From Sulfuricellaceae bacterium (GTDB lineage: Bacteria > Pseudomonadota > Gammaproteobacteria > Burkholderiales > Sulfuricellaceae), in contig JBAYVP010000002.1 of the NCBI GenBank assembly GCA_041674485.1, positions 9,897 through 73,896 of the forward strand: a DNA stretch of 64,000 nucleotides. The letters are read 5' to 3'. Position numbers and translations under genes: made by a program. Of this stretch, positions 1 through 22,652 are shown piece after piece. Below the pieces are notes generated by a model. The model did not search any database, was not told the DNA's origin, and was given only the letters and a program-made list of their open reading frames with translations. How positions within the stretch are numbered: the first letter of the stretch is position 1; each line of letters opens with the position of its first letter.

Positions 1-204
1 AAAGGTAATAGCCCTTATGGCGTCGCCGATATGGCTGGCAATGTATGGGAATGGACCTCCAGCTTCGAAGATAAATATAGCGTTCTCAAGGGTGGATCTT
101 TTTTTGAGGGCAGAAATTATTCCACAAGTTACAACAACCTTCTCAGCATTCCCGCTGATGCAAAAGACTATGTCGGGTTTCGCTGCGTCAAAAACATTAA
201 ATAA
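1..204 (+). CDS. FGE-sulfatase (SUMF1/EgtB/NirV-like) domain protein, C-terminal fragment; 5' end lies outside the window
   Basis: Frame +1 is open from base 1 to TAA 202-204: KGNSPYGVADMAGNVWEWTSS...VLKGGSFFEG...DYVGFRCVKNIK*. GNVWEWT, GGS and GFRC are hallmark C-terminal motifs of the formylglycine-generating-enzyme fold. It is absent from the ORF track because it has no start codon in the window. Confidence 0.75.
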   Translation, partial: KGNSPYGVADMAGNVWEWTSSFEDKYSVLKGGSFFEGRNYSTSYNNLLSIPADAKDYVGFRCVKNIK

Positions 205-399
205 CTAAGGGCTGGTTGGGGGCATATAAGCTGTTACGCTCAATGTAAAAAGTTGACGTAGCAGTTCGTTTATCCGTGTGCCCTTGCCATGGGCTCCTCA
301 GGCATCGATTGATAGCCGCCCCTCCATTACGTTGAAAGCTTTCATGCATAACGACAGTCCCTATCCGATAGGTGCTGCCGCACACAATTCAGTGATTTT

Positions 400-1593
400 A
401 TGAAAATTAAACAATCGCATTGGCATCACTATTTTGGGGGGATTGCGCTTCTTCTCCTGATTGTTCAAGTTCTTTCCGGCTCGGTTTTGACGTTATTTTA
501 TGAACCCCACCTGAAAGAAGCCTATGCCAGCGTACAATATATCTACAACGAACTCAGCCTGGTTGCCTGGATAAGGGACACACACCGCTGGGCCGCGCTG
601 TTCTTGATGGTTGCGGTAATCATGCATTTCATACGGGGCTTTTTAAGGAAGGATTACCTTAACCGTGACAGCAAGACGTTATGGCTAACCGGTATTCTTC
701 TCTACCTGCCCATGCTGGGGTTCTTGTTTACCGGAGTCATCTTGCCGTGGGAATGGAGAGGCTATTGGTTCATGGAGATGATCCCTAATTACGTGGGCGA
801 GATCCCGTTGATCGGGCCGTCTTTAAGTGATTTCCTCATCAATACCTTCACCCTTAATCGGACGCTGGTCGTGCATATTTGCATTCTACCTGCCATCACG
901 TTAGTGTTGATGGGCATACACACCTTTACCCGGGTTATAAAAAGAGCAGGCGGGCTCACGCTGTATGTTATGGAACATAGCCTGCTCACCCTGCCGTTTT
1001 TGGTGGCTATTGCCATATTGGCGTATGCCCTGCCGATGCCGTCCCAGGATCCTGCAATCATACCCATGCCCCTGGAAGGCGAAAACCTGCCAACGGCTGA
1101 GTGGTTTATTCTCATATTCTATGTACCCTATTTGTATTTCAAAGGGTTCATGGCGACCTTGCTCGGCTTCTATATACCGTTAGCCATTTTTCTGGCTTTG
1201 GCGATTTTCCCTTATTTTCTCAAGGGGAGGAAAACCAAGAGTGTCGAAAATATTACGCTCAAAGACCATGCCCCTGAAAAAACCCATACTATGGAAAAAA
1301 AGGGCGCATTCGCGAAAACCATGGCACCGCTGCGCAGACTTCTGGGTGCAAGGACTTATGCAAAAACGTTGGCTTTTTTAACTGTTTTGCTGGCAGCAAC
1401 GGCTTTGTTCGCCCCACTTTTTGTCGTTTCCCATGAATCTCCCACCTATGGCTGTAATTCATGCCACAACCCGTCTATGGGAGACAGGCTGGGACTGCCC
1501 CCCGATTCATTTAAGGATAGGGTAAAGAACCCCAATCTCAAAGATAATACTTTTATGGTAGAGCACTGGTTTTATCCACAAGTGGTCTGGTAG
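400..1593 (+). CDS. Fused cytochrome b (b6-like N-terminal part + subunit IV-like part) with a C-terminal monohaem c tail
   Basis: Cyt b blocks are present: FGGIALLLLIVQVLSGSVLTLFY, RDTHRWAALFLMVAVIMHFIRGF, TGVILPWEWRGYWF, NRTLVVHICILP...GIHTF (four His ligand positions). A PEWY-like PTAEWFILIFYVPY follows, then an extra TM helix and CNSCHNPSMG (CxxCH). The C-terminal tail resembles that of 2885-3577. Confidence 0.8.
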   Translation: MKIKQSHWHHYFGGIALLLLIVQVLSGSVLTLFYEPHLKEAYASVQYIYNELSLVAWIRDTHRWAALFLMVAVIMHFIRGFLRKDYLNRDSKTLWLTGILLYLPMLGFLFTGVILPWEWRGYWFMEMIPNYVGEIPLIGPSLSDFLINTFTLNRTLVVHICILPAITLVLMGIHTFTRVIKRAGGLTLYVMEHSLLTLPFLVAIAILAYALPMPSQDPAIIPMPLEGENLPTAEWFILIFYVPYLYFKGFMATLLGFYIPLAIFLALAIFPYFLKGRKTKSVENITLKDHAPEKTHTMEKKGAFAKTMAPLRRLLGARTYAKTLAFLTVLLAATALFAPLFVVSHESPTYGCNSCHNPSMGDRLGLPPDSFKDRVKNPNLKDNTFMVEHWFYPQVVW

Positions 1594-1696
1594 GGAAAGC
1601 TATGGCCGCGCGACATACCGCAACTCTAACGGCGCATATCAATTTTAATAAGCTGCAGATGAACGTGTTTTCAATGAGCAATATAAGGAGAGTGCT

Positions 1697-2239
1697 TTGA
1701 TTCTGAAGCGTAAAACAAATTTTTATAGTCGCATTTTGCTGCTGCTCGCCTTCGCGATAGCAGGCTGCAGCCCCATGGGTGGCACTAGCACCCTACCCGA
1801 GGATGGCCCTGAAACCGTCACCAAACGGTTCTATGAATTAATCTCGGCCGCGAAAATGGAAGGGGGGTCTACGACCGCCAGTGAGGCGTTCAAGCTGGTC
1901 GATACCAAGCTTTCCAATTTGAACGTGAACCAGTTCCTGGAAGTCATCAAGCGCTATCCGGAAAAATTTGTCGTGGAAGTAGGCAAAACCGAGATCAAAG
2001 GAACCCAGGCCTTGGTTTCCATCAGCTACAAGATGCCCTCCAGCTTTGGCGGCGAATATACGGTGCGTGAAATATTGCCTCTTAATATTGACCCGGTTAC
2101 CAATACCTGGAAGGTCGACTTTACCGGCGACACTTACGGCATGCAAAAGGATGAGGCCATAGCGGCAAGCAAGGCGGAAACGCCCCCGCCGCCACCGGTT
2201 GATCCGGCGAAATCCGCAACAACACCAGCGGCTAAATAA
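1697..2239 (+). CDS. Lipoprotein of unknown function with a Pro-rich C-terminus
   Basis: TTG start 7 nt after AAGGAGAG. Lipobox LLAFAIAGC. Tail is ETPPPPPVDPAKSATTPAAK. Its stop overlaps the next start (TAATG at 2237-2241). Confidence 0.6.
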   Translation: MILKRKTNFYSRILLLLAFAIAGCSPMGGTSTLPEDGPETVTKRFYELISAAKMEGGSTTASEAFKLVDTKLSNLNVNQFLEVIKRYPEKFVVEVGKTEIKGTQALVSISYKMPSSFGGEYTVREILPLNIDPVTNTWKVDFTGDTYGMQKDEAIAASKAETPPPPPVDPAKSATTPAAK

Positions 2240-2862
2240 TGGCCAGCGCCGTCAAAGTTGCGGAGTGGATCAAGGAGCGCATCCGCTTAAAGAAAGGCAA
2301 GCCGATACCTGCGCATGTCAATTTCTTTTATTGCTTTGGCGGCGTCTCGCTGTTCCTCATCCTCCTGCAGTTGGCCTCCGGCGTATTCATGCTTTTTTTC
2401 TATACGCCCGAGCCTGACAAGGCACTGTTAAGCATCGCACATTTAAGCAATGAAGTTACTTTGGGGTGGCTGTTCAGAAACATGCACCGCTGGGCCTCCA
2501 CACTATTGCTGGCGACGGTGTTTTCCCACATGGTCATCGTGTTCTACCTGAAAGCCTTCCAGAGCCCCAGGCAGTTGACCTGGATGTCCGGCGTATTCCA
2601 GTTGCTCACGGTATTTTTGCTGGTGGTCACCGGGCTGATTCTCCCTTGGGATTGGAGATCCTATTGGTCTTTCGCGATCTGGATGGATTACATCGGGACA
2701 TGGACGATTGGAGGCGAATCCTTACAGAATATGCTGCTGGATACCTTCACTCTGAATGCGGCCTATTTTATCCACATCCTGATCATTCCGTTAATTCTCG
2801 CGGTTTCACTGTCTTTCCACTTCAAAATGGTCAGGCGGCACGGAATATCTGAGCCACTGTAA
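2239..2862 (+). CDS. Cytochrome b6-type protein (PetB/QcrB-like, four-helix N-terminal half only)
   Basis: 207 aa. FGGVSLFLILLQLASGVFMLFFYTPEP, FRNMHRWASTLLLATVFSHMVIVF, TGLILPWDWRSYW, AAYFIHILIIPL...SFHFKMVRRHGISEPL. It is collinear with cytochrome b6, including the characteristic RKQGISGPL-like end. Confidence 0.85.
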   Translation: MASAVKVAEWIKERIRLKKGKPIPAHVNFFYCFGGVSLFLILLQLASGVFMLFFYTPEPDKALLSIAHLSNEVTLGWLFRNMHRWASTLLLATVFSHMVIVFYLKAFQSPRQLTWMSGVFQLLTVFLLVVTGLILPWDWRSYWSFAIWMDYIGTWTIGGESLQNMLLDTFTLNAAYFIHILIIPLILAVSLSFHFKMVRRHGISEPL

Positions 2863-2884
2863 GTTCATGCGGGCTAACTGAATC

Positions 2885-3577
2885 ATGGCGAACAAAGAGA
2901 TAGCAATCATCATGGAGCCCAAATACGCTCCGCCTTATCCGCAGTCGTTCTATGCTTTCTGGCCGAAACACGCGATCAAGGCAGGGACGCTGATATCCCT
3001 CATATTGCTGGGATTGTTATTGCTGGCCTTTTTCATCAGGGTGCCGATGGACCCCAACATGCCGCCCATGCCCGATGAGGGTGCCTACGTGCCCGCGCCT
3101 GAGTGGTATCTGTTTTTTCTGTTTCAACCCTTCTGGTATTTGGCAGGGGATAACGCGAAATGGTTGCCGATCGGGACGTTTTGGCTCCCGCTTCTGGTTG
3201 TAGTTTTTCTATTTCTGGTACCCTTTATCTTTCGCAAACGCAAAGACTCACGCGCCGGAATCAAGGCAGCCACTCTGCTGTCTGTTGCCGTCTTTGCCGT
3301 GCTTGTATGGGGAGTCCCCGTGGGAGCCGTGGTTGCCAGCGGCGCTCCCGCCAAAACCCTGGGTTGCCCTTCTTGCCACAACCCCATGATGGGCGAGCGG
3401 CAGGCGTTGCCTCCCGCCATGATGGGAGAGTTCTATAGGACAGAACGCCAGAGACAGGTCAACCTGGGTGGCTATAGTGCCGGCTCAGTGGAAGCCGATA
3501 ACCCGCACCCAGCCGGGTCTTACAAAGATGCTAACTGGCAACTACGCCATTTTTATGAGCCCACAATGACCTGGTAA
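2885..3577 (+). CDS. Subunit IV-like (PetD/QcrC-like) membrane protein fused to a monohaem cytochrome c tail
   Basis: PAPEWYLFFLFQPFWY (PEWY box), TM helices, then GCPSCHNPMMGERQALPP (CxxCH) and a ...HFYEPTMTW end. The architecture resembles the Bacillus QcrC-type subunit IV-cyt c fusion. Confidence 0.75.
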   Translation: MANKEIAIIMEPKYAPPYPQSFYAFWPKHAIKAGTLISLILLGLLLLAFFIRVPMDPNMPPMPDEGAYVPAPEWYLFFLFQPFWYLAGDNAKWLPIGTFWLPLLVVVFLFLVPFIFRKRKDSRAGIKAATLLSVAVFAVLVWGVPVGAVVASGAPAKTLGCPSCHNPMMGERQALPPAMMGEFYRTERQRQVNLGGYSAGSVEADNPHPAGSYKDANWQLRHFYEPTMTW

Positions 3578-3590
3578 CTCAAGTTTGGTA

Positions 3591-4913
3591 ATGATAAATA
3601 TGTTTTCAATAAGCGCACCCTTTAATAATCTTTCTCTGCAAAAAACCGGTTTCGGCCTGATGTTTTTCGTATGTGCAGCCTTGCTGGGCGGTGGGTCAGC
3701 TTGCGCACAGGATCAACACGACCATGGCAATGCCAAAACTCCGGTTATGCCCACAGACCCCATGAGCGGCCACGGCCATGGCAATCACCAGACCCATTCA
3801 ACAACCACGACCCCCATCAAGGAAGTGGCGTTACCCGAAGGACTCAGTTCGGCACAGTCGATGGCAATAGACTCGGTCGGACATATCTGGTTTACCGAAA
3901 AAGTCGGCAAAAACCTGGCCATGTATGACCCGGGTAAAAAAGAGTTTTCGACCTACCCGCTCCCCGCCTCATGGGGAAAGATGGGTTTTTCAAACATGAC
4001 GCTGGGGCCCGATGGGGACATCTGGTTTACCGTGACGCGCTGGGTTGAGGGTGCGGAACAGCCCAATATTCTGGGCAGATTTTCGCCGGCGGACGGATAT
4101 TTTACAAAATATGCCATTCCGCACAATTCAATTCCTGAAGAATTGGTCGTCGATGCCCAGGGCACGATATGGTTTTTTGCCTCCAATAAAAACTATCTCT
4201 ATCGCGTCGATTCCAAGACTTTCGCCCTCAAAGGGTATCCCATTCCGACCACCAACGGTAACCCCAAGAGCTTGGCTGCCGATCAAAGAGGCCATATCTG
4301 GTTTGTCGAATCCAATGCCAATAAACTCGGAGAATTTATTCCGGAGCAGGGAGTATTTAACGAATATGATGTGCTCACGCAATTTGCCAATCTGGGAAAA
4401 ATTTCCATTGATAAGAATGGAAAAATATGGTTTGTGGAAGTCACCGCAAACCGGATCGGAGTGTTTTCACCCGAGCAGGAACGATTTGATGAAGTCATCA
4501 TCCCCACCCCCAGCAGCACGCCCGTTGCGCTGGTAAACGACGACAAGGGGAATGTCTGGTTTCTGGAATACAAAGGCAACAAAGTTGGCGTCTTTAATCC
4601 GGAGAAGGCGACCTTCCATGAATTCGATATTCCCAGCTTCGGCAGTTTACCGGCAGACATGGCGATAGATCGCAAACGATCTCTGCTCTGGTTCACCCAA
4701 AGCGCCACAGAAGCAAAGACGCTGGGGATGCTGTCCATCGACGAAGCGCTAGCGAAAATAGACCAGCAAAGCAAAGCCCCGCTACCGGCTCCCGAGGAAA
4801 AAGCCTCCGAAGGCAGCATGACTCAATGGCTGGTTGCTCTCGCCGCAATGATTGGCATCGCCATGCTGGGCGTGTGGTTAACCAGGAGAGCTCGCAAAGG
4901 CGGTGCTTCATAA
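3591..4913 (+). CDS. Exported 7-bladed beta-propeller (Vgb/streptogramin-lyase-like repeats) with a His-rich N-terminal stretch and a C-terminal TM anchor
   Basis: Signal-like N-terminus. His-rich stretch QDQHDHGN...SGHGHGNHQTHS. Seven repeats of G-x-(I/V)WF-x-E...G-x-(F/Y)-x-P (GHIWFTE, GDIWFTV, GTIWFFA, GHIWFVE, GKIWFVE, GNVWFLE, SLLWFTQ). C-terminal WLVALAAMIGIAMLGVWLTRRARK. The start is ambiguous (TTG 3585, ATG 3591 or ATG 3600). Confidence 0.7.
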   Translation: MINMFSISAPFNNLSLQKTGFGLMFFVCAALLGGGSACAQDQHDHGNAKTPVMPTDPMSGHGHGNHQTHSTTTTPIKEVALPEGLSSAQSMAIDSVGHIWFTEKVGKNLAMYDPGKKEFSTYPLPASWGKMGFSNMTLGPDGDIWFTVTRWVEGAEQPNILGRFSPADGYFTKYAIPHNSIPEELVVDAQGTIWFFASNKNYLYRVDSKTFALKGYPIPTTNGNPKSLAADQRGHIWFVESNANKLGEFIPEQGVFNEYDVLTQFANLGKISIDKNGKIWFVEVTANRIGVFSPEQERFDEVIIPTPSSTPVALVNDDKGNVWFLEYKGNKVGVFNPEKATFHEFDIPSFGSLPADMAIDRKRSLLWFTQSATEAKTLGMLSIDEALAKIDQQSKAPLPAPEEKASEGSMTQWLVALAAMIGIAMLGVWLTRRARKGGAS

Positions 4914-5103
4914 TCTCAACTTACAGGTTTTTTACTGCACATGTACCCCATCAAGATGGGGAAACTTTCGCGGCTTTAATGTATCTGTAAACCAACACTT
5001 AACTGAGTGTCAGCCTTGGCTTGGTTGCTCTCCTTCAGGCTTGGCTCTTCTTCCTGCAACCATGCACTCGTGCCTTCACACTATTTAAAACAAGGATAAT
5101 GCG

Positions 5104-6093
5104 GTGAAAAAAGTAGCTTTTTTTTGGATAATTTTCAGCAGTTTTTTATGCTCCTCCTCCTGGGGCGCTGAAACCTTTCAATCCTTCAAAATACCCACAG
5201 AATTTACCTTGCCAACAAGAATTGCCATCGACAAAACAGATACCGTTTGGTTTGTTGCGTCAAACTTTCATAAAATCGGCCGGTTTCAGCCTGCCCGGGG
5301 TATTTTTTCCGAGCACAACATCCCCACCCCCAAAAGCTCTCCCTCGGATATAACTATCAGCAACACCGGCAAGGTGTGGTTTACCGAGTCAAATTCTAAC
5401 CAGCTCGGCGTTCTCGACCCCGCCTCGCTGACCTTCAAGGAATACGATATTCCTACAATATCCAGCAATCCCGGCAGAATTGCATCCGACCTCTACGGGA
5501 ATATCTGGTTTACTGAATTTTATGGCAATAAAATTGGCATGTTCGACCCCCGCAAAGAAACCTTCCGTGAATATCCGGTGCCTACGCCCGATAGCCGTCC
5601 GTCCGGCATTGCCGTGGATAAAAAAGGCATAGTATGGTTCCTAGAATCCGAGGGCAATAAACTGGCTCGGTTCAATCCCAAAGATGGTGCGATTCAGGAG
5701 TTTGCTTTACCCGAATCGCACGAGACACCGCGAGATTTAACTATAGACCGTGCCGGGATGCTCTGGTTTGGCGGCCACATAGGGCGAAATTTGATGACAT
5801 TTAACCCCACGACAAAAAAATTCAAATCCTTTCTCTTGCCCAATAACGGCGCAATTGAAAGCTTGGCCGTGGGGATGAATGGAAAAATATACTGCACCCT
5901 CCTGACCAGCAGCAAGATCGCCGTGTTTGACACGGCAACCCACGCATTTCTGGAATTGGACGTGGGCGTGGGTAAGAGCAAACCCAATGGCATCAGCTCT
6001 GATTCAAAGGGAGATATCTGGTTTACTGATACGGATAAAAATACCCTGATCAAATTGGATGCTCGTATGGCAGCCAAACTATGGGTAAAATAA
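5104..6093 (+). CDS. Exported 7-bladed beta-propeller, paralogue of 3591-4913 (Vgb-like repeats)
   Basis: GTG start after AAGGA. Signal peptide MKKVAFFWIIFSSFLCSSSWGA. Repeats DTVWFVA, GKVWFTE, GNIWFTE, GIVWFLE, GMLWFGG, GKIYCTL, GDIWFTD, each followed by a (K/Q/R)(I/L)G/A-x-F/L-(N/D/Q)P-type motif. Confidence 0.7.
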   Translation: MKKVAFFWIIFSSFLCSSSWGAETFQSFKIPTEFTLPTRIAIDKTDTVWFVASNFHKIGRFQPARGIFSEHNIPTPKSSPSDITISNTGKVWFTESNSNQLGVLDPASLTFKEYDIPTISSNPGRIASDLYGNIWFTEFYGNKIGMFDPRKETFREYPVPTPDSRPSGIAVDKKGIVWFLESEGNKLARFNPKDGAIQEFALPESHETPRDLTIDRAGMLWFGGHIGRNLMTFNPTTKKFKSFLLPNNGAIESLAVGMNGKIYCTLLTSSKIAVFDTATHAFLELDVGVGKSKPNGISSDSKGDIWFTDTDKNTLIKLDARMAAKLWVK

Positions 6094-6148
6094 TGCGGGC
6101 AGAGTACTGGAAATTGATCGGTATCTTGCTGTCAACGATAGGTAGAAT

Positions 6149-6670
6149 ATGAAAAAATATGGATGGGTAGTGGGTTTATTTATTTTGGTAATCGTTGCTG
6201 CGGTTGGCGCAGTAGCCATTCCTAACCCGTTAAGTGTGCAGATACTGACCGAAGCCAAGTACCGGGGCTATCTCCCCTATACCACTGACGAGGCTGTTAC
6301 CCTTGCCTACAAGCGCTGCACCACCTGCCACCCCGCTGACAAAATGCTCAAATACTGCTCTCGCTGCGGCCCGCCCTTTATTGTCGTTTCTCAATCCATG
6401 AAAAAATACACGGAATTGATGAACGAGAAAGGCGGCAACTTTAAGCCGTTCTCCGATGCGGAGACGGTTGCAATTACACAGGTCTGGAACGGCTTGGTCG
6501 GAAATTGGGAGCCGGATTGGGGCACGAAAGACATTAAGAAACTCTTGCAAGGCGATCAGGCGCTGATTCGTTTGGCTGAAACGCCCATAGAGCAAAGACC
6601 CATAGAAGTGGCGCTGAAAAACAAGCAAGCGCCAGGTTCGCATAAAGAGGACAGAAAAACCGTTCCCTAA
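6149..6670 (+). CDS. Membrane-anchored putative monohaem cytochrome c
   Basis: N-terminal TM WVVGLFILVIVAAVGAVAI, then YKRCTTCHPADKM (CxxCH) and a second Cys pair CSRCG. No further family recognised. Confidence 0.5.
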   Translation: MKKYGWVVGLFILVIVAAVGAVAIPNPLSVQILTEAKYRGYLPYTTDEAVTLAYKRCTTCHPADKMLKYCSRCGPPFIVVSQSMKKYTELMNEKGGNFKPFSDAETVAITQVWNGLVGNWEPDWGTKDIKKLLQGDQALIRLAETPIEQRPIEVALKNKQAPGSHKEDRKTVP

Positions 6671-6687
6671 TTTTTTCTCTGGTTTTT

Positions 6688-6939
6688 TCAGGCAAGCAAT
6701 TTTTCCAGAATTTTTGCGTAATAGTACTGGCGCAGATTCTGCCTGGCCATCAGCAGAATCAACAGCACCAACACAAAATGAATGCCGGGCGCAAAATCGG
6801 GTTGTGTGGCGAACTGCCAAGCGTAATACAGTGCCAAACCCAGCCCGGCGATTACGCTTGTAACCGAGAGTGCCAGAAAGAGTTTTTTGCGCTTGATAGC
6901 TCGCTTGGCAAAACAAAGTTCTGAATCAGTCATGCTCAT
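6688..6939 (-). CDS. Small two-TM membrane protein, unknown function
   Basis: 83 aa with two hydrophobic helices (LFLALSVTSVIAGLGLALYYAW; IHFVLVLLILLMA). Sits downstream of the cytochrome c gene on the same strand. Confidence 0.4.
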   Translation of the reverse strand: MSMTDSELCFAKRAIKRKKLFLALSVTSVIAGLGLALYYAWQFATQPDFAPGIHFVLVLLILLMARQNLRQYYYAKILEKLLA

Positions 6940-7065
6940 GTGCGCGCACTTGATCGGTTCTGTGTAAGTAACAAAATGATGGGCGAATGGATTTATTTAA
7001 CCCGATTTCCCCCTTAAGCTGAGACGATGCTGCGCAGGATGCGCGACAGATCAAACGCCCCGTTA

Positions 7066-7521
7066 TTATTTGGCTTTGTATTTACACATACAGATACTGT
7101 TCCTGACATATTGAACAATTTGTTTTATCTCTGCATCGGTAAAAGTTTCTTTCCAGCTCGGCATAGCCTCGGAAAGCCCCACCGCAACGCCACCGGATTT
7201 GACAACCTTAAAAAGGAACTCATCAGTGCGCGCCGATAGCAGCTGGGCATCGTTCAAATTTCGGGCCTTTAATCCTTCCCCAAGCGTATCTGCCAAAGGG
7301 CCATCCCCTTTCCCGGTATCCCCATGGCAAGGCGAACAATTTCCAATATAGTTGTCCTTACCGGCATTCCCGGTGTACGTTCCAGTATTGACAGGGTCTA
7401 TCTCTATATGGGAACGATTCCTATCTTTCTTTAACGGTTCTGCCGCAAATCCTGCACCGGCAAAAACCATGATGCTCAAGCCCAGAGCTAGGGATATTAC
7501 CCTCACTCGCAAGTTTTTCAT
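7066..7521 (-). CDS. Class I c-type cytochrome (monohaem, exported)
   Basis: Signal peptide MKNLRVRVISLALGLSIMVFAGAGFA. CSPCHGDTGKGDGP haem motif and a distal AMPSW Met region. Confidence 0.8.
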   Translation of the reverse strand: MKNLRVRVISLALGLSIMVFAGAGFAAEPLKKDRNRSHIEIDPVNTGTYTGNAGKDNYIGNCSPCHGDTGKGDGPLADTLGEGLKARNLNDAQLLSARTDEFLFKVVKSGGVAVGLSEAMPSWKETFTDAEIKQIVQYVRNSICMCKYKAK

Positions 7522-7669
7522 TTGCCCTCCTTACTTTTCAAACATTCAGCCTTCGGATCAGATCACAGGACTTTTGAAGCGTTGCTCATTCTATAACTAT
7601 ACGTAGCCTGCACTCATCCAACCCATTACGCACTCACGCACTTGCAAACGCGCCCTCCGCTTACCAGCG

Positions 7670-9127
7670 CTATTCAAGAGCCGCATCCATTGATTCCAGC
7701 GAATATGCAGTTTTTGCGCCCGACTGCTGCGCTTCCTCGCGCCGCTTTCTTTCAACGGAGGGCCAGCATTGCGCTCCCAGGATACGATCCGCCACGGCAT
7801 GCCCGCAGACCAGGCGATCGCGCACCGACACCCCGCCCCGGTAGTTGGCCTCGAGATGAAGGCTGGGAATATGTTGCAAACGCGCCGTGATTGCCTGCAT
7901 GCGCGCCTGGTAGGCGCCGTGATACGCGGGCAGCGCCTCGCAGTGCCTGTCGATGCGCACCATCTCCGGGTCGGATTTTAAATCCATGAGCGGGCGCAGT
8001 GTTCTGAATGTCTCATCCACGAGGCGTCCGTCGTCCCAATCCGCCACATTGGGAGCGCGCGCCCCACCGAGATAAGAGGTCAGCAGGACTTTACCCGGAG
8101 GTGCCCGATCGGGAAACAGGGCGCTCATCCACAGATTGCCCGTCAGAGTTCCACTTTCTCCTTTGGGCGCGAGGAACCCGGTGCCATCCAGCGGATGTCC
8201 CACCGCGTCGCGCGCCATCCCGGCATGCACGACATTCACCGGTGCGTAACCAATGCCACGCAACAATTCAGCCAACTCTTTGTCCAGCGGATTGACCAGT
8301 GCAGCAGCAGCAGGTGCGGGCGTTGCCACGATCACATGGCAGGCTGACACGGTGCGCTGCCCGTGTGGCGTTGCCGCTACAGCTTGCCAGCCCTCCCGCT
8401 CGCGCACCAGTTCTTGCGCGGTATGGCCGGTGCGCAAATTGATTCCGGGAGCCTGTGCCAGCGCCTCCACCAAGGTAGCCATGCCGCCACGAAAGGAAAA
8501 AGTGTCGGTAGTGCTGGCCGTGCTGCGGCGTAATACACGGTTAACCAGCACTCCCGCTCCGATGCTGCCGTAGCGCTGCTCCAAAGCCATCAGGCGCGGC
8601 AAAACGGCAGCGGCACTGGCCTGATCCGCATCTGCGGCCAGCGTCCCGGCAACGAAAGGCTCCATGGCTTTTTCCAGCACTTCACGGCCAAGACGACGCG
8701 TGATGAATTCGCTGACCGATTCTTCGCTCCGCCCGCTGGAGAAGATGAACGGTTCTGCCAGCAGGCGCAATTTGCCGCGCAGGCTCCACAAGGGTGAAAC
8801 CACCATGGAACCCAAACGCATGGGCAGTGCTTTCAGACGCCCCTTGTGCAACAGGTAACGGCGCGCCTCGGCGCCAGGCAAGCGGGCGGTTTTTGCCGAT
8901 TCCAGCCCGGCCTCGCGCATCAGCTCCGCCACTTCGGGACGGAAATTCAACACCATAGATGCGGCGCGTTCGGTGAGATAGCCGTCCTGCCGGGTGCTCA
9001 TGATCTTGCCGCCCGAGCGCTCGCTGGCCTCCCATACCTCTACCGAAAGGCCGCTGCGCGCCAGCCACCAGGCGGAAGCCAAGCCTGAAATACCGCCACC
9101 GATAATGAGTACGTCAACTTTATTCAT
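7670..9127 (-). CDS. FAD-dependent protoporphyrinogen/coproporphyrinogen oxidase-like protein (HemY/PPOX family)
   Basis: MNKVDVLIIGGGISGLASAWWLARSG...EASERSGGKI dinucleotide-binding motif at the N-terminus. Overall length and C-terminal GGVSVRD block are typical of HemY-type amine-oxidase-fold enzymes. ATG 9127 is preferred over GTG 9193 because it puts the GxGxxG motif at the N-terminus. Confidence 0.7.
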   Translation of the reverse strand: MNKVDVLIIGGGISGLASAWWLARSGLSVEVWEASERSGGKIMSTRQDGYLTERAASMVLNFRPEVAELMREAGLESAKTARLPGAEARRYLLHKGRLKALPMRLGSMVVSPLWSLRGKLRLLAEPFIFSSGRSEESVSEFITRRLGREVLEKAMEPFVAGTLAADADQASAAAVLPRLMALEQRYGSIGAGVLVNRVLRRSTASTTDTFSFRGGMATLVEALAQAPGINLRTGHTAQELVREREGWQAVAATPHGQRTVSACHVIVATPAPAAAALVNPLDKELAELLRGIGYAPVNVVHAGMARDAVGHPLDGTGFLAPKGESGTLTGNLWMSALFPDRAPPGKVLLTSYLGGARAPNVADWDDGRLVDETFRTLRPLMDLKSDPEMVRIDRHCEALPAYHGAYQARMQAITARLQHIPSLHLEANYRGGVSVRDRLVCGHAVADRILGAQCWPSVERKRREEAQQSGAKTAYSLESMDAALE

Positions 9128-9280: not shown

Positions 9281-11347
9281 TTACTTGTTTGCCTTGAGTT
9301 GCGCCTTCATTTTTTCGAGCAAATCCTGACCCAGCAGATCGCCGGGATTTTCCCGTGCAGCAACAAAATTTTTGATGGTATCAAAACGCTTGTCGGCTTC
9401 GGGATTGTCCTTGAGGCGCGGCACGCGATCGCGCGCAATCTCGTAGGCATCGAAGCTCAATTCCTGCATTCCGAACCCCTTCATGCGCTGCACCGCGCGC
9501 ATCATGGCGTTATTGCGGAAGCGCGTCAGGTCGCTGGAAGTAATGCGCGCCAAACCTTCCTTGCGCGCGTTGAATTCGGCGGCTTTTTTGATGCCCGCGC
9601 GGTTGAAGTCGGGCGCGGACAATACGCGCGCCAAGGCATCCTCGTCCCATTCCACGCCGCCGGTCAGTTGCGCGATGGCCGCCTCGACATCCACTCTCTC
9701 AACGGTGGCGGCGCGGCGTTTTTGGGTGAAGCTTTCTGCGGCACCTTCCAGAGCAGGCTCAACAAACATGCGCACCTGTGGCGCTTTTTCGGCTAGGAAC
9801 GCCGTGAGCATTTGATCAGATTCATCCGTCCACGAAAAACTGCGACCGGGTGGCTGTTCCGATTCCAGCCTGTCCAACAGCTTGATATTGACTTCCAGTC
9901 TGCCCTCGGAACGCGCGACATCTTCGGCAATCGCGCGCACCCCTTCCTGCAGGAAAGCGGGCATGGCCGCAAGGCGCTCGCGCGCCTGCTCGCTCCACGG
10001 CAACGTGGCAGCAGAAGCTTGGCCTGCCGCCGATGATGCGGCTTGCAGGTTTGCGTCTCCTGCTGCGCCAGATTTCATATCGGGTCGCGGCGGCCCGCCA
10101 TTGCCGAAGCGTTTGGCGGACAAAGTTGCCAAATGCTCTTCCGTCACCACATGCAAGCCAAGATCATGCACATAGCTTTCCGCGCGTTTCTTGACCATCT
10201 TGCGCAGGAAGGAGGGAACACGCGACAGGCGCTTCTCCGCCTCTTCACTCCAGGACAGCGTTTCAGTTTGCTCGGCCAGCGGCTCGATGACGGCGGCTCC
10301 CTCGGGTACATAAACGCACCAGGGATCGGTATCCATCAGGCTGTCGCCGAGGGCGAGGGGTCGCGCGCGGCAACCGCCGCACAATTTCCGGAATTCGCAA
10401 CTGCCGCACTTGCCTTGCAGCCTGGGATTGCGCAATGCCTGAAAGGTAGGCGATTGATTCCAGATGTCCCAAAATTTAGCGTCGCGGATGTTGCCTTCTT
10501 CATCGGGAATATACGGGCAGGCCGTCACGCCGCCTTCCGGGGTGATGCGGCAATAATGGATGCCGGCCAGACAACCGCCGCCCTCGTATCCGGCGGCACG
10601 GGTGAGCGTCGATTGCGGGTTGCGCTGATAGGCGATGCGCTTGTAATGGGGAGCGCAGCGGGCGCGGATCAGCAAATCCCGGCTCTGCTCTTGCGCCGCC
10701 ACCAATTGGTTGAGCACCCGCTCATAAGTGATGGGACTGATATCCGACATGGATTCGCCGCGACCGGTACACACCAGGAAGAACACGTTCAGCACCCGCG
10801 CCCCGGAAGCCCGAGCAAAATCTATCATGCCCGGCACTTCGTCGGCATTGGATTCGGTGACGGAGAAATGGATCTGGAAGGGCATGCCGTGGCGCTTGCA
10901 GGCCTCAATGCCCTGCATGGTTTTCTCCCACGCGCCCGACAACCCGCGGAAGGCATCGTGCTTTTCGGGGTCGAGAGAATCGACGCTGATACCTGCGCCC
11001 ATCGCGCCGGCAGCCTTCAGCGATTGCACGCGCTTATCGGTAAGCGCCACGCCGTTTGTCCCAACCACCATGGCAAGGCCGCGTCCGGTACCATGCGCTA
11101 CCAGTTCCTCCAGATCGCCACGCATCATCGGTTCACCGCCGGTGAGCACCACCATGGTTTCCGTGCTGCGTGCCGCAATGTCGTCCAGCAGGCTGCACAC
11201 CTCCACCGTGGTGAGCTCGTTCCTGTCGCCATGCTTCATGGTTTCCGCATCCATGTAGCAGTGGGCGCAGGCAAGATTACAGCGCTTGGTCAGATTGATG
11301 GCGAGCAGAAACAGGCCGTTTGCATCGGCGGTGCGAGATACATCCAT
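9281..11347 (-). CDS. Radical SAM/SPASM enzyme (NirJ/AhbD-like core) fused to three or four PCP_red-like (BchB C-terminal-like) domains
   Basis: CNLACAHCY (CxxxCxxC) and GGEPMMR. SPASM Cys cluster GGGCLAG...ACPY...GKCGSCEFRKLCGGCRARP. Then repeated W-S/T-x-E-A...VP-x-F modules (LSWSEEAEKRLSRVPSFLRKMVKK; LPWSEQARERLAAMPAFLQEGVR; FSWTDESDQML; VEWDEDALARVLSAPDFNRAGIKK). Start moved to ATG 11347, which overlaps the upstream stop (TAATG); the longer track ORF would overlap the upstream gene by 214 nt. Confidence 0.8.
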   Translation of the reverse strand: MDVSRTADANGLFLLAINLTKRCNLACAHCYMDAETMKHGDRNELTTVEVCSLLDDIAARSTETMVVLTGGEPMMRGDLEELVAHGTGRGLAMVVGTNGVALTDKRVQSLKAAGAMGAGISVDSLDPEKHDAFRGLSGAWEKTMQGIEACKRHGMPFQIHFSVTESNADEVPGMIDFARASGARVLNVFFLVCTGRGESMSDISPITYERVLNQLVAAQEQSRDLLIRARCAPHYKRIAYQRNPQSTLTRAAGYEGGGCLAGIHYCRITPEGGVTACPYIPDEEGNIRDAKFWDIWNQSPTFQALRNPRLQGKCGSCEFRKLCGGCRARPLALGDSLMDTDPWCVYVPEGAAVIEPLAEQTETLSWSEEAEKRLSRVPSFLRKMVKKRAESYVHDLGLHVVTEEHLATLSAKRFGNGGPPRPDMKSGAAGDANLQAASSAAGQASAATLPWSEQARERLAAMPAFLQEGVRAIAEDVARSEGRLEVNIKLLDRLESEQPPGRSFSWTDESDQMLTAFLAEKAPQVRMFVEPALEGAAESFTQKRRAATVERVDVEAAIAQLTGGVEWDEDALARVLSAPDFNRAGIKKAAEFNARKEGLARITSSDLTRFRNNAMMRAVQRMKGFGMQELSFDAYEIARDRVPRLKDNPEADKRFDTIKNFVAARENPGDLLGQDLLEKMKAQLKANK

Positions 11348-13170
11348 TATTGTCCCGCGTCTTGAGGGTTCCCGTCCTGGGAGTTCTGGGCTTTTTTGCC
11401 GAAGCCAAACGGGCAACCGCTCTTGGCAGCCGGCTCGCTTTTTCCCATCATGGTTTTTTCCATTTCGCCGCGCGCCTGCTTGAGGCCGTTTTCTGCCACG
11501 TCCAGAGTGACTTCGGCGTGGCCATTTTGCCGGGCAAAATTCTCGATGCTCTGCTTGCACCGGTCGCGCATGAAACCCTCAGGCACCCGCATCAGGCGCG
11601 CCAGCGCGGCGGCCTGCCAATGAATTTCGGATGAACCGGGTAGCCCCGCCGCCGCTGCGGGCTGGGCGCTATCCGGCGCGTCGGTGTCGAGGAACGATTT
11701 AATATGCTTGGCTTCCACCGCGTCACACTTTTCCTGACGCGCTTTCTTCTCGGCGCGCATACTGAGATTGCCGCGCACCGAAAGGTCTTCGACGGTGCGC
11801 AACAGCGCAACCGCCTCGTCGGACCAGCGCATGACCTCTTCCGCCGCTGGCTTGCGCTTCAATTCTCCCGCATCGTAGGCCGCGACGATTTCCCCCATAG
11901 CCTGCTCCGCATGATTCGGCATGAGCTGCGCGGTCGCTTCGTCCACAATCTTCTGGGTGATGACGGTGTGGCCATGTTCCTGCGCATAGCGCATGATGGC
12001 CATGCGCGCCATGTTGCGGACGAAGGAAGGCACCCGCTCCATCCGTGCTTCGGCCTCATGCGTCCAAGAGGTAGTGACGCCCGACACGACATCTATTTTC
12101 GGCTGGTATTCGCGCATGCTGAGCAAAATGGCGCAGTCCACATTTTCCAGCAAATGCTCGCTATTGCCGCCGATGTCGAGTTCATCATCGGCATGAATGC
12201 CCAACTTGCCGACGATCAGCAAGGAGGGCTTGATTTTTTTGACATACTTCTCGATGGCATCGTGAGGCTTGCCATCCAGCAGCTCGGTTTCTATTTCAAC
12301 GCCAAAATCCCCGGCGATGGATCGGGCGACAGCCAAATGGCCGTCATAGATTTTTGCCAACCCAGAGTCTATGATCTCTTCGTGCAGCTTTTCCTGATCC
12401 TTGAATTTGAATACCTTGCCTGCCTCTTCGGACAGCACGCCGGCAATCCGGTTAAAGGCAACATAGTGGTAATAGGGATCGAAGGCGGCAATAACCTTGA
12501 CCGGAACCTGCCAAGTTTTGCCTAGCGCCAGCCCGGTGAGCAAGCCACCGTACGACTTGGCTGAGCCGTCCACCGCGACGACTATCGGGCCTTTCTTGAT
12601 CGCGCGCTCGGGTTCCTTGATAACCAGCGTATCAATGGCCGAACGCCGCGCCACCCGTCGGCACACGGTACCCAACCGGCTCCCTTTTATCGCGCCTAGC
12701 CCTAGCGCTCCCATAATGAGCAGATCGTATTTTCCGGTATTCGTTTCCCGCGTAAGTTCGCGGTAATTTTTTCCTTCAAGCGAGCTGCGCTTGAAGTCGA
12801 TGCCAAGCCGTTCGCATTCGTTGGCAGCCTGATCGAGATAAGAATCGGTGATGATCGACAAGCCGCGTGTGATCAGGTCGTCATGCACATCCCGCTGCCG
12901 CTCCAACTCCTGTTCTTGCCGGAACTGTTCTGGCAGGCCGCCTTCCATCTGGCGAAAACGCATGTCATGCAGCTTGGCGGCATAGACATGGCTACCGGTA
13001 ATCACTGGCGTATCCACCAGACCCGCCAGTTCGGTGGCGCTCTGCATAGCGGCATTGGCATGGTCTGATGAATCCAGTGCCACCAGAATACGTTGATAAA
13101 AACCGGTGTCTAGCGATGGGTGAGACTCTTCGGCAACGGCCAAAGAAACTTGGGACGTCATGTGATGCAC
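11347..13170 (-). CDS. Tandem universal-stress-protein (USP) domains fused to three PCP_red-like domains
   Basis: Two USP-like halves (ILVALDSSDHANAAM...LLIMGALG; IVVAVDGSAKSYGGL...SLLIVGKLG). Then TSWTHEAEARMERVPSFVRNMARMAI, MRWSDEAVALLRTVEDL and IHWQAAALARLMRVPEGFMRDRCK modules. Confidence 0.75.
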   Translation of the reverse strand: MHHMTSQVSLAVAEESHPSLDTGFYQRILVALDSSDHANAAMQSATELAGLVDTPVITGSHVYAAKLHDMRFRQMEGGLPEQFRQEQELERQRDVHDDLITRGLSIITDSYLDQAANECERLGIDFKRSSLEGKNYRELTRETNTGKYDLLIMGALGLGAIKGSRLGTVCRRVARRSAIDTLVIKEPERAIKKGPIVVAVDGSAKSYGGLLTGLALGKTWQVPVKVIAAFDPYYHYVAFNRIAGVLSEEAGKVFKFKDQEKLHEEIIDSGLAKIYDGHLAVARSIAGDFGVEIETELLDGKPHDAIEKYVKKIKPSLLIVGKLGIHADDELDIGGNSEHLLENVDCAILLSMREYQPKIDVVSGVTTSWTHEAEARMERVPSFVRNMARMAIMRYAQEHGHTVITQKIVDEATAQLMPNHAEQAMGEIVAAYDAGELKRKPAAEEVMRWSDEAVALLRTVEDLSVRGNLSMRAEKKARQEKCDAVEAKHIKSFLDTDAPDSAQPAAAAGLPGSSEIHWQAAALARLMRVPEGFMRDRCKQSIENFARQNGHAEVTLDVAENGLKQARGEMEKTMMGKSEPAAKSGCPFGFGKKAQNSQDGNPQDAGQ

Positions 13171-14449: not shown

Positions 14450-16207
14450 TTACAGACCCTTCACACGCTCCGCTACAGTAAGCTGACCCTCTTCCAACAA
14501 ACCTGGCAGATGTTGCGCCTTAGCGTAATCACCCACAGCTAGGTTAGATGGCCCAGCCTTAGGATCGTCAACGAAGAACGCCGCTCTCATTTCCAGATGC
14601 AACGGTCCGCAGAAGTGCGTACAGAAGATTTCATATTCCCCTGCAATATCCGCCGTAAACTCATGCACTGCGGTTACACCGCGTGGCAAGTCCATGTTGG
14701 AACGCTGACCGTAAGGACCATAAATCGTCAAACCCATGGTGACGTCAGGATTCTTGGTGATGCCAGCCGCCTTGTCGATGTTGGTCGCAAACAACCGCAC
14801 CTTGTCGCCCTTGTTCACCCTGACCTGACGGGGAATGTAGCCGTAGCTGAAGGCCTTCATGTGAATTTCCTTCACGCCATCAACCAGCTTGACGCCCGGT
14901 GGTGTGGTTTCCTTGGGAATGAAGTAGCGCTTCGATAATGCGCGATGTGGAGGATCCAGCAGATCGGTTCTGCCATTGATCAGCCCACCCTGTTCCGCCT
15001 CGCCCTTGGTCCAATCCTTGACCAGATAGGACATCAGACCCTTGGCGTTATGCGGCTCACCATCCACCGGCATAATCTTCAAAGTCTTGCCGTAGGTTGG
15101 GCTCTTTTCGCGCGCATCCCACATCTCGAAGTTAACCGGGAATACGATACCGGTTGGGCTGAACAGGCCGGTTGAGAACTTGTTCAACGCCATCACATAG
15201 GAGTTATCCGGGGAGATGGAAATATGACCCGTTCTATAGTGGGTTGGGATTTCGTCAACCACTTCAAGTTTTTTCAGGTCGATCTTCACGTTAGCGTCCG
15301 CCACGAAGCAGCTCTCATAGGCGTACTTGGAAGTCAGGCCATCCGGGCTGTCTATGCCAGCACGGTAGGAACCGCCATCCTTGTTATATACGTCCATGAC
15401 CGAATGCAGAGGACCCGCGCAAGTCGGTAGAACCTTCTTGACTGCCAATTTCTGTGTGTCGATGATGGTCATGGTCGCGGAGAGCTTATCGCTCACCAGC
15501 ACCAAAGTGCTTTCAGGAATGACGTCGGTGCCGTGTGGGTTCTTGCCCACTGGTATTTCCTTGATCAGCTTGAATGGGCTGGTGGAAAACACGCCCACGG
15601 TAGAGTGGTAGTAGTTACCCGCAAAAACATATTTACCATCCCGGCTGGCGTCGATATAGTCCGGCGCGCTTGGGGAAGGACCCCAGTCGATCACTTCGGT
15701 CTTGCCCGTCTTGATCTCGACCTTGGCCATCTTGCCGCTATACTCACCCGTTCCAAACAGATGCTTGCCATCGGTGCTCATTGCAATATGGTGAACGCCA
15801 AACGGGAAAGGCAGCGCGATGACTCTGGCCAAATAGCCAGTTTGAATATCGAACTCGCAAATCGTGTTGGCACCCTTATCGTTCAGGTAAACGTATTTGC
15901 CGTCCGGCGTACCGTTCTTGTTGCCCTTGTTGCTTCCACCAAATGAAATTTCGTGCGTATCCACGCCGCAATCGATATGGCGATAGGTTTTGAAACTGGG
16001 AATACCGATGATCGCCATCTTGCCGTCCACACCGCCGGACGAGTACAACAGCATCGGATCAATGGTTGGCGTATCCTTGCCATCCGGAACCGCAACCTGC
16101 CACCCCGGTATGACTTGCGATTTATCCGCAGCCGCATTCGCTGTGCTAGCCATCAAGCAACTCATTGAAAGAGCGCTCATCATTAAAAATTTCGTTTTGT
16201 TTTGCAT
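14450..16207 (-). CDS. Divergent NosZ-like protein: 7-bladed Cu beta-propeller plus C-terminal CuA-type cupredoxin domain, Sec-type signal
   Basis: Start ATG 16207 after AAGGGGAG. Signal MQNKTKFLMMSALSMSCLMASTANA has no RR motif. NosZ blocks: YSSGGVDGKMAIIGIPSF, DGKYVYLNDKGAN, KNPHG, GPLHS, THYRTGH, GEPHN. CuA loop is CTHFCGPLHLEM (C-x3-C-x3-H-x2-M). It deviates at the HH pair (DTHE) and the first CuA His (DVTMGL). Confidence 0.75.
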   Translation of the reverse strand: MQNKTKFLMMSALSMSCLMASTANAAADKSQVIPGWQVAVPDGKDTPTIDPMLLYSSGGVDGKMAIIGIPSFKTYRHIDCGVDTHEISFGGSNKGNKNGTPDGKYVYLNDKGANTICEFDIQTGYLARVIALPFPFGVHHIAMSTDGKHLFGTGEYSGKMAKVEIKTGKTEVIDWGPSPSAPDYIDASRDGKYVFAGNYYHSTVGVFSTSPFKLIKEIPVGKNPHGTDVIPESTLVLVSDKLSATMTIIDTQKLAVKKVLPTCAGPLHSVMDVYNKDGGSYRAGIDSPDGLTSKYAYESCFVADANVKIDLKKLEVVDEIPTHYRTGHISISPDNSYVMALNKFSTGLFSPTGIVFPVNFEMWDAREKSPTYGKTLKIMPVDGEPHNAKGLMSYLVKDWTKGEAEQGGLINGRTDLLDPPHRALSKRYFIPKETTPPGVKLVDGVKEIHMKAFSYGYIPRQVRVNKGDKVRLFATNIDKAAGITKNPDVTMGLTIYGPYGQRSNMDLPRGVTAVHEFTADIAGEYEIFCTHFCGPLHLEMRAAFFVDDPKAGPSNLAVGDYAKAQHLPGLLEEGQLTVAERVKGL

Positions 16208-16633
16208 TATTACTCCCCTTGTTCGCAACTGCTTAATTAATAGGATAGCGTAATGTTTACGCCGACCTTCAAACCAACACATTTACTTAGCTGCCACTAC
16301 GATTGCTCTTACTCAACACTGTACTGCATTCACTCAAAACTGCCAGCTTCACCATAAACCTTGCAACATCTAACCATGCGACATATTGTCGCTGCGGCAT
16401 TTTGTCGCATCATGCCCAAAATGAATACTATCGTCAAGAGAGAGGTGAAAAAATTTACGTTAATGCGGGGTACAAAGAAAAAAGGCGATATTTTGCACAT
16501 AACGTGATGAACAAGGCGGGAGCAAAGCACATGCCGAGTGGCAGTTTCTCATCAAGCCCCATGAGAGATAGTGACGTTTAACCCCCGCTACCAAACCATC
16601 CCAATCCGCCAAATTCCACAAACACAACCTATC

Positions 16634-18690: not shown

Positions 18691-18709
18691 AATTATTCCC
18701 AATCGCAGA

Positions 18710-19492: not shown

Positions 19493-19494
19493 GA

Positions 19495-22226: not shown

Positions 22227-22339
22227 GATTTACTCCCGATTTTTTCGATATACCGTATTAGAAAGGCCAGTCCGGTTCCAGGCACGCTTGCACCATAAAC
22301 ATTAAGGAAGCACCTCCTCAAGCGAAGGCAACCAATCAC

Positions 22340-22456
22340 TTAATGGTTAAACGTCAGCGTCAACCCCTGAAGATGCATCATGGCGAAATCCAAACCAAAA
22401 AATACGGCGCCAAAGACAACAAACGCACCGACGAATGGTAAAAAATAATCTTTCAT
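22340..22456 (-). CDS. Possible 38 aa single-TM peptide between the 63 aa ORF and the bd-like gene
   Basis: MKDYFLPFVGAFVVFGAVFFGLDFAMMHLQGLTLTFNH, read by hand from the minus strand (too short for the ORF track). It fills the gap just upstream of the bd-like gene. There is no homology evidence. Confidence 0.3.
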   Translation of the reverse strand: MKDYFLPFVGAFVVFGAVFFGLDFAMMHLQGLTLTFNH

Positions 22457-22460
22457 GTCG

Positions 22461-22652
22461 TTACGCCCTCAAAAACCACGTAAAAAAAACAATCAATGCA
22501 ATCAGGGTCGCCACAAAAAAAGCCGGCCCCGCCCAAGGGTACTTCGATTTTTCACTCTCTTCTGGTATCGGATTATGGTAGAACCCGGTGGCATCGATAA
22601 ACTTGTCGTTCGGATTCTCGCCGTCCACCTCATGTGTTGCATTTGCGCTCAT
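22461..22652 (-). CDS. Small single-TM protein at the head of the bd-like operon
   Basis: 63 aa: hydrophilic N-terminus, then AGPAFFVATLIALIVFFTWFL. Confidence 0.4.
   Translation of the reverse strand: MSANATHEVDGENPNDKFIDATGFYHNPIPEESEKSKYPWAGPAFFVATLIALIVFFTWFLRA

Follow-up and report, generated by a model that had tools for sequence, protein, structure and literature searches.

In a 64,000-nucleotide stretch of a Sulfuricellaceae contig (JBAYVP010000002.1, assembly GCA_041674485.1; below, the window), positions 400 to 6670 encode a fused and a split cytochrome b module, a lipoprotein, two propeller proteins and a small anchored protein, c173. The evidence leans, with some room for doubt, towards reading this segment as the module that handles membrane electron transfer and accessory functions in a gene supercluster that contains the gene for L-NosZ, the clade III, lactonase-type nitrous oxide reductase, in a Gallionella-like bacterium. 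Most likely the b6-like subunit, the subunit IV-like protein with its haem c tail (SUIVc), c173 and the propellers are the quinol-fed electron-input module of L-NosZ. The module is a member of the L-nos supercluster: L-NosZ is encoded in the window, 8 kb downstream of the segment, it is directly adjacent to the module in 14 other loci, and Sco1, PCuAC and thioredoxin genes, as CuA assembly would require, lie in the neighbourhood. One conserved L-nos supercluster of ~30 genes takes up the first ~34 kb of the window (~1 to 34,000; Table 1). An earlier note on this DNA had not recognised the segment as a described complex; an orphan complex is not supported, as L-NosZ is encoded in the same conserved neighbourhood.

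The L-NosZ reading frame starting at MQNK scored 750.6 bits on the NCBIfam equivalog NF052460, above the cut-off of 700, and a profile built from 12 L-NosZ sequences gave the longer frame 14450-16282 (minus strand) 1102 bits. The motif criteria of the discovery study, as quoted by a citing paper, are CX2FCX3HXEM, D/GXHH, PHG, GPLH and EPH. All five were present in the product, with CTHFCGPLHLEM as the CuA motif together with GVHH, PHG, GPLH and EPH, and they were found in 119-120 of 120 homologues. The product belongs to the L-NosZ family by these matches, and its N2O reduction is predicted. He et al. described the family in 2025 (Nature 646:152, as cited in PMC13477213), and according to citing papers that study showed its N2O-reducing activity. 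According to PMC13477213 (2026), clade III nosZ is adjoined by 'cytochrome- and transporter-related genes', and canonical nosR, nosB, nosD and nosL are missing from the clade III clusters.

The related loci came from a pattern-limited scan of 185,579 species genomes. It returned 44 loci, all in metagenome-assembled genomes (MAGs) and none in a cultured model iron oxidiser. Synteny was tabulated over 47 loci and three more fetched from L-NosZ homologues. All open reading frames (ORFs) of the related loci were clustered to find neighbours, and the L-NosZ profile was then run on the window. In the non-Gallionella lineages the ~590-aa gene directly upstream of the lipoprotein gene was an L-NosZ equivalog (845 bits, cut-off 700). 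L-nosZ stood directly upstream of the string lipoprotein-b6-SUIVc-propeller 1-propeller 2-(cytochrome c)-c173 in 14 other genomes, which comprise Gamma- and Alphaproteobacteria, Magnetococcales and one 'Deltaproteobacteria' MAG; in Zetaproteobacteria and Burkholderiales it shares a contig with the module. In the Gallionellaceae loci L-nosZ was initially missed because it lay just past the 10-kb flanks that had been fetched. Several MAGs of Gallionella and Gallionellales carry annotated homologues with 79-90% identity; a pangenome study of 103 genomes reports no nosZ in Gallionellaceae.

The closest homologues of the module were found in Gallionellaceae and Zetaproteobacteria, and the order lipoprotein-b6-SUIVc-propeller 1-propeller 2-c173 was kept in these two groups as well as in Gamma- and Alphaproteobacteria and Magnetococcales. 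The taxonomic position of the closest homologues would suit a role in iron-oxidiser energy metabolism, with electrons passing from periplasmic cytochromes c to the quinone pool by reverse flow and with L-nosZ in the vicinity only incidentally. Iron oxidisers need uphill electron transport, and some extracellular electron transfer clusters (Uet) hold NHL-type propellers. However, the module occurs in one gene string with L-nosZ in MAGs of Halieaceae, Sedimenticola, Rhodospirillales, Hyphomicrobiales and Magnetococcales, the 44 scan loci include no cultured model iron oxidiser, and Slit_1321-1324, the cluster that responds to Fe, is made up of other genes. We consider this role improbable. A reading specific to Fe oxidation was dropped, as the module stands beside L-nosZ in lineages that do not oxidise iron. 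The gene sets of Slit_1321-1324, PCC3, Uet and Mto differ from it.

The split cytochrome b6-like subunit resembles cytochrome b6 over its whole length (E=1.4e-40 in a PDB sequence search). Four histidines provide the haem-b ligands, H83/H97 of the HX13H motif in helix B and H179/H194 of the HX14H motif in helix D. The haem-ci motif is YCFGG, and its CxGG cysteine was invariant in 29 of 29 full-length orthologues. The protein scored 157.4 bits on the NCBIfam b6 model PRK03735, below the cut-off of 325; its best NCBIfam match was ExtP with 166.6 bits, which does not reach the equivalog cut-off of 290.

SUIVc matched no Pfam or NCBIfam model, including Pfam PF00032 (subunit IV / cytochrome b C-terminal domain), and a search of PDB sequences with its family profile gave nothing meaningful. 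The same profile aligns on full-length cytochromes b exactly where Pfam puts Cytochrom_B_C, and via these cytochromes b the homology to subunit IV holds by transitivity of the alignments. Hydropathy and the rough secondary structure of an AlphaFold2 (AF2) model (pLDDT 49, 19 sequences) gave three transmembrane (TM) helices, a topology that would place the haem c tail on the P side, in the periplasm. The earlier note had recognised the CxxCH tails, and among the homologues of SUIVc both CxxCH and P[ED]WY were kept in 120 of 120. The tails of the two paralogues are 50-75 aa long, and no Pfam cytochrome c model (Cytochrom_C or Cytochrome_CBB3) matches either of them. His222/His389 is conserved in both tails and Met228 in the split form only; these are the candidates for the distal ligand. 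In a profile search of 1.84 billion representative proteins the SUIVc family appeared compact (7 representatives at E<=1e-30), and its distant relatives were full-length cytochrome b-cytochrome c fusions, with whose first cytochrome c domain the tail aligns. The comparison with Bacillus QcrC made in the earlier note is apt as an architectural analogy, but the hosts of the family are Proteobacteria, and the closest among its distant relatives are these full-length fusions. Variants of the gene order were seen: in the 'Deltaproteobacteria' MAG (locus L032, 7707-12292) a cytochrome c gene is inserted between b6 and SUIVc, and in Burkholderiales-type loci (L020, L022, L024 and L048) SUIVc-propeller 1-propeller 2-c173 is followed by the bd-like set and L-nosZ.

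In the fused protein Pfam Cytochrome_B covers residues 10-176, and the closest solved structures are those of cytochrome b6. Its haem-b ligands are H62/H76 (HX13H) and H159/H174 (HX14H). The haem-ci cysteine is absent (HHYFGG), and none of 27 sequences carries the CxGG Cys. In pairwise comparison the split b6-like protein matched fused residues 12-184 with 35% identity (E=2e-34), and the 230-aa SUIVc was collinear with residues 201-397 from the haem motif through the terminal Trp (E=4e-16). The latter alignment spans GC.SCHNP.MG.R..LPP and the terminal H(F/W)(Y/F)..P...W. The two modules, fused and split, each with a monohaem c tail, had been taken for an ancient duplication; judged by these alignments, the duplication is proven.

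The fused cytochrome b occurred without the split module in loci of Nitrospinota and Desulfuromonadales (L036-L046), and it is therefore the more widespread form. There it adjoins other genes of the supercluster (the ATP-binding cassette (ABC) set, FGE, the radical SAM (rSAM) and universal stress protein (Usp) genes, and the bd-like set), and no L-nosZ was seen within 10 kb of these loci. On this reading the fused cytochrome b is an older and commoner form of one device, of which the propeller-bearing split module is the proteobacterial elaboration. The GldAFG-like ABC transporter and the FGE-fold protein accompany the fused form, which is probably at work in a second branch of this supercluster. 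In L036-L046 the fused gene is followed by another lipoprotein of ~209 aa, conserved in 8 loci.

Motif scans of the window, of the 10 kb upstream of it (recovered from the exact-match metagenome contigs L001 and L002) and of the surroundings of the module in 49 related loci agreed with the earlier observation that no Rieske gene is linked to the module; the scans of the related loci returned only an ordinary bc1 operon (L011) and a soluble ferredoxin of a suf operon (L020). As PEWY, both b haems and the ci motif are retained, a working Qo/Qi machine is suggested, and from the consistent lack of Rieske genes beside the module one would suspect a high-potential acceptor other than Rieske, or a borrowed one. 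The sequences and the gene linkage point to a mechanism in which the b6-like subunit and SUIVc would form a quinol-oxidising complex without a Rieske protein of its own. Electrons would exit on the periplasmic side via the haem c tail and the membrane-anchored c173, and would then pass through a soluble cytochrome c (the 320-aa or the 151-aa protein) to CuA of L-NosZ, where N2O would be reduced to N2. The 320-aa cytochrome c is a candidate for the direct electron donor. The Vgb-like propellers may dock or scaffold the periplasmic components on the complex, with propeller 1 anchored by its tail; our confidence in this last step is low. The general suggestion of the earlier note, a quinol-linked periplasmic redox role, is reasonable.

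An ordinary Q-cycle bc-type complex that borrowed its Rieske protein from the housekeeping petABC at another locus would also be expected to have PEWY, the two b haems and the haem-ci motif completely conserved; in that case only the gene linkage would be unusual. A related Nitrosomonadales MAG (L011) carries a canonical Rieske and cytochrome b pair (bc1) 6 kb upstream, and bc1 is encoded by 85% of iron-oxidising Gallionellaceae (Hoover 2023). On the other hand, dedicated bc operons normally have a Rieske gene, and none was linked to the module in ~35 loci from five classes with several gene orders; the module is also invariably accompanied by c173 and propeller 1, both of them additional, anchored and periplasmic. 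We regard such borrowing as possible, although on the whole unlikely. In a further version the split module would be a Rieske-independent b6c quinol oxidoreductase with the tail and c173 replacing Rieske and cytochrome f, and propeller 1, at the position of the Rieske anchor, would dock L-NosZ to form a quinol:N2O supercomplex. We put this arrangement forward tentatively, with the odds clearly against it.

Several points weigh against an electron-input role of the module. The proposed role rests on sequence and gene linkage, and we know of no well-characterised precedent for Rieske-less quinol oxidation at a Qo site. The Rieske protein could be supplied in trans from the housekeeping bc1, and in L011 a bc1 pair does lie near the module. 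Three possible quinol-interacting modules (split b6c, fused b and bd-like) are each a possible feeder of L-NosZ. In the four Burkholderiales-type loci neither a b6 nor a lipoprotein gene was found upstream of SUIVc, and for the Nitrospinota-type loci the presence of the fused cytochrome b without the split module speaks against the assignment.

The two propellers were confirmed as seven-bladed. Both matched Pfam Vgb_lyase (PF24684, cut-off 50), propeller 1 with 145.9 bits (1.5e-42) and propeller 2 with 173.9 bits (4.3e-51), and each has seven G.IWF-type repeats with a spacing of ~43 aa. The start of propeller 1 is most likely the ATG at 3591. Propeller 2 matched PDB 2qc5 with 1.6e-52. On the NCBIfam models for Vgb(A) and Vgb(B) the propellers scored 123-162 bits, far under the cut-off of 600. 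The propellers and the anchored CxxCH protein, which had been noticed beside the cytochrome b genes, are conserved there across the proteobacterial loci; the propellers come after the cytochrome genes in 28-32 of 35 loci, from five proteobacterial classes. In L032 both propellers were closest to propeller 2.

This constant position, together with the His/Met-rich stretch seen in propeller 1 of Gallionellaceae, could be taken to favour one reading of the earlier note, which had called the propellers catalytic or partner subunits: that they do the catalysis in a new periplasmic metalloenzyme supplied with electrons by the cytochrome b modules. The stretch and the membrane anchor are both present, but only the anchor is general (26 of 29 complete orthologues); the stretch is specific to its lineage and missing from most others. 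Neither orthologue family has an invariant His or Cys, and the propellers are therefore unlikely to be catalytic. The metal site of Vgb lyase is a His/His/Glu triad, and such a triad had no conserved-residue support in the propellers, no His being invariant in the orthologue alignments. A genuine catalytic enzyme, L-NosZ, is moreover encoded in the cluster. A catalytic role of the propellers is thus very hard to credit. With low confidence, we take them for non-catalytic, membrane-tethered partners.

Both motifs of c173, C..CH and C..CGPP, were kept in 24 of 24 orthologues. The protein had no relatives in Pfam, NCBIfam or the PDB, where the matches were spurious antibody sequences. As the CxxCH lies in a Sec-exported domain, haem c is favoured over Fe-S, and c173 is probably a membrane-anchored monohaem cytochrome c. 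With its N-terminal anchor, four Cys and one His, c173 was also considered as an Fe-S substitute for Rieske; this was thought unlikely, and the protein is without a twin-arginine signal. The lipoprotein gene between the two cytochrome b modules, omitted from the earlier note, was present in 27 loci. Its product matched no Pfam or NCBIfam family and gave no NosL match. Its AF2 model had a pLDDT of 52 (32 sequences, all at least 70% identical) and gave only non-significant NTF2/SnoaL-like matches in Foldseek; on this model the fold is possibly NTF2-like. A NosL-like fold was unsupported by Foldseek on the same pLDDT-52 model.

The accessory proteins are central to another explanation, in which the module is a maintenance or activation system for L-NosZ, an analogue of NosR/NosB that keeps CuZ reduced or aids copper-sulfide assembly while the propellers and the lipoprotein handle the enzyme. 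The propellers and the lipoprotein, without redox motifs, would fit a chaperone or scaffold, the ABC transporter is GldAFG-like rather than NosFY, and iron-oxidising bacteria could feed L-NosZ straight from periplasmic cytochromes c. The lack of canonical nosR, nosB, nosD and nosL in clade III clusters, as given in PMC13477213, would also be in keeping with such a system. However, upkeep would hardly call for so elaborate a haem chain (b, b, ci, c, c173 and soluble cytochromes c), and NosR-like flavin or Fe-S domains were absent in the Pfam and NCBIfam searches. We find a maintenance function doubtful and prefer the electron-input module.

Table 1. Features of the window and of the adjoining upstream contig
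Feature	Position	Strand	Remarks
GldA/GldF/GldG-like ABC-2 transporter + DUF4340 + Peripla_BP_6	L001 3005-8736		divergent; upstream of window base 1
FGE-sulfatase (SUMF1-fold), 3' end	1-201	+	full gene 243 aa on contigs L001 and L002; Pfam FGE-sulfatase
Fused b6-like + subunit IV-like + monohaem c tail (cytbF), 397 aa	400-1593	+	AEWF Qo-type box, CNSCH, HHYFGG
Conserved lipoprotein, 180 aa	1697-2239	+	lipobox ..AGC; between the two cytochrome b modules
Split cytochrome b6-like subunit, 207 aa	2239-2862	+	HX13H/HX14H, YCFGG (CxGG), C-terminus RRHGISEPL
Subunit IV-like protein (SUIVc), 230 aa	2885-3577	+	three predicted TM helices, PEWY Qo motif, C-terminal monohaem c tail CPSCH
Propeller 1	3591-4913	+	signal peptide, His/Met-rich linker, 7-bladed Vgb-like propeller, C-terminal TM anchor + basic tail
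Propeller 2	5104-6093	+	signal peptide + 7-bladed Vgb-like propeller, soluble
c173 (probable cytochrome c)	6149-6670	+	N-terminal TM anchor, then periplasmic domain with C..CH + C..CGPP
Small membrane protein, 83 aa	6688-6939	-	conserved next to the PPOX-like gene
Periplasmic class I cytochrome c, 151 aa	7066-7521	-	
Protoporphyrinogen oxidase (PPOX)-like flavoprotein	7670-9127	-	TIGR00562, 239 bits vs cut-off 98
AhbD/NirJ2-like radical SAM/SPASM + three PCP_red domains	9281-11347	-	310 bits, below equivalog cut-offs
Universal-stress-protein domains fused to PCP_red domains	11347-13161	-	
Periplasmic cytochrome c, 320 aa	13409-14371	-	class I domain residues 150-240; always beside L-nosZ or within module; 21 loci
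L-NosZ, clade III lactonase-type nitrous oxide reductase (predicted activity), 585 aa	14450-16207	-	from MQNK...; ORF reaches 16282
Dihaem c-EB_dh (haem b) fusion, four more cytochromes c, 641-aa cytochrome bd subunit I-like	17158-23905	-	possible second oxidase or quinol module
Three periplasmic thioredoxin-like, CcdA/DsbD-like, Sco1/SenC, PCuAC, unknowns	27500-33831	+	probable CuA-assembly + thiol-redox branch

The ORFs and sequence features listed in the earlier note for the segment were all found as described. None of the conditions under which that note would have given up its observation was encountered, and the arrangement is therefore no product of chance. Besides the genes of the segment, L-nosZ and the 320-aa cytochrome c, the supercluster comprises the GldAFG-like ABC set, FGE, the PPOX-like gene, rSAM and Usp-PCP_red, the bd-like gene with its cytochromes c, and the Sco1/PCuAC/thioredoxin-like genes. 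The identification of the gene upstream of the segment as FGE/SUMF1-fold was borne out by Pfam FGE-sulfatase on the full gene; the gene stands beside the cluster in 14 loci. Upstream of the window it is followed by the divergent ABC transporter with its periplasmic binding protein. The GldAFG-like set is kept with the cluster in 17-21 loci, with matches to GldA, GldF and GldG all under the cut-offs; in Gamma- and Alphaproteobacteria it has c173 on one side and the fused cytochrome b on the other.

The AhbD/NirJ2-like radical SAM protein accompanies L-nosZ or cytbF in L045, L047 and L048. A tetrapyrrole-type trio (rSAM-PCP_red, Usp-PCP_red and PPOX-like) travels with L-nosZ and the fused cytochrome b in a copper-enzyme cluster. 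The set with the bd-like subunit was conserved in 9-10 related loci. The set with Sco1 and PCuAC also flanks L-nosZ in a zetaproteobacterial MAG (L047), and the same set was found in L029, L044 and L049. A promoter and terminator scan of 1-7600 gave no excess over shuffled sequence. The supercluster is followed in the window by flagellar genes. This flagellar block (FliD, FliS, FliK and two YcgR-like PilZ proteins) contains a flagellin of unusual length, 925 aa, at 47985-50762 on the minus strand, near which a HipA-like kinase and a YhgA-like transposase are encoded.

L-NosZ itself has been known since 2025; of interest here are a b6c design that apparently does without Rieske, propeller partners that await an explanation, and the occurrence of L-nos in iron oxidisers. 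In the searchable literature we found no description of the b6/SUIVc/propeller module; He et al. 2025 lay outside that search. Clade III L-NosZ has only lately been recognised as a sink for N2O, a greenhouse gas, and its clusters lack the canonical nos accessory genes. The analysis defines a candidate electron-input module and a supercluster of ~30 genes that are open to direct testing, and it places the full L-nos supercluster in Gallionella-like and zetaproteobacterial iron oxidisers, so that iron-oxidising mats may consume N2O. If the tentative quinol:N2O supercomplex exists, iron oxidisers (Gallionella, Zetaproteobacteria), reported to be without nosZ, would gain N2O-respiring capacity. 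If the complex is indeed Rieske-free, the notion that a Rieske protein is indispensable for Qo-site quinol oxidation would be challenged.

The module resembles the b6f complex and Bacillus QcrB+QcrC in its split cytochrome b, in the four-helix b6-like subunit with HX13H, HX14H and the CxGG motif of haem ci, and in the PEWY-bearing subunit IV-like partner with a C-terminal haem c predicted on the P side; its best PDB matches are b6 proteins. It differs from them in having no linked Rieske gene, in its score on PRK03735 (157 against 325 bits), in the short tail of 50-75 aa with no Pfam cytochrome c match, in its proteobacterial hosts and in its partners, which are two propellers, a lipoprotein and c173. 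With the cytochrome b-c fusions (Kao & Hunte 2014), whose 'PEWY-cyt c' type is the counterpart of the distant relatives found with the SUIVc profile, it shares a c-type haem domain attached to cytochrome b or to the C-terminal half of that protein, and the spread of extra copies of these fusions by horizontal transfer is a further likeness. Unlike the module, the fusions have recognisable class I domains, often several, and they come from Firmicutes, Planctomycetes, Nitrospirae and similar phyla, whereas SUIVc forms a compact, separate group. Geobacter ExtP and Cbc likewise use a b6-like cytochrome b that works with c-type cytochromes outside a classical bc1 operon, but the score on ExtP was below its cut-off (166.6 against 290 bits), and the operon here holds propellers and is linked to L-NosZ instead of multihaem conduits.

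Among the accessory proteins, the propellers are seven-bladed like virginiamycin B / streptogramin B lyase (Vgb) and belong to the same Pfam family (PDB 2qc5 and 2z2n, E=1e-52 to 1e-43), but they are exported, one of them is membrane-anchored, they lack an invariant His for a metal site, and their gene context is respiratory. The supercluster differs from NosDFY/NosL in that its best transporter matches are GldA, GldF and GldG and not NosF/NosY, NosD is missing, and the lipoprotein has no NosL match; it resembles that system in encoding, with the reductase, an ABC ATPase and an ABC-2 permease, periplasmic accessory proteins and a small lipoprotein. As a precedent for the proposed electron-input role, clade II nos clusters reportedly have quinol dehydrogenases of their own, which are NosGH with NosC1/C2 in some and a pair of Rieske protein and cytochrome b in others (Sanford 2012; Hein & Simon 2019). 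Their protein families differ from those described here, where Rieske, NapGH-type Fe-S proteins and NosB are lacking and the reductase is L-NosZ, but the arrangement is alike in both: a quinol dehydrogenase and cytochromes c are encoded within the cluster of an N2O reductase.

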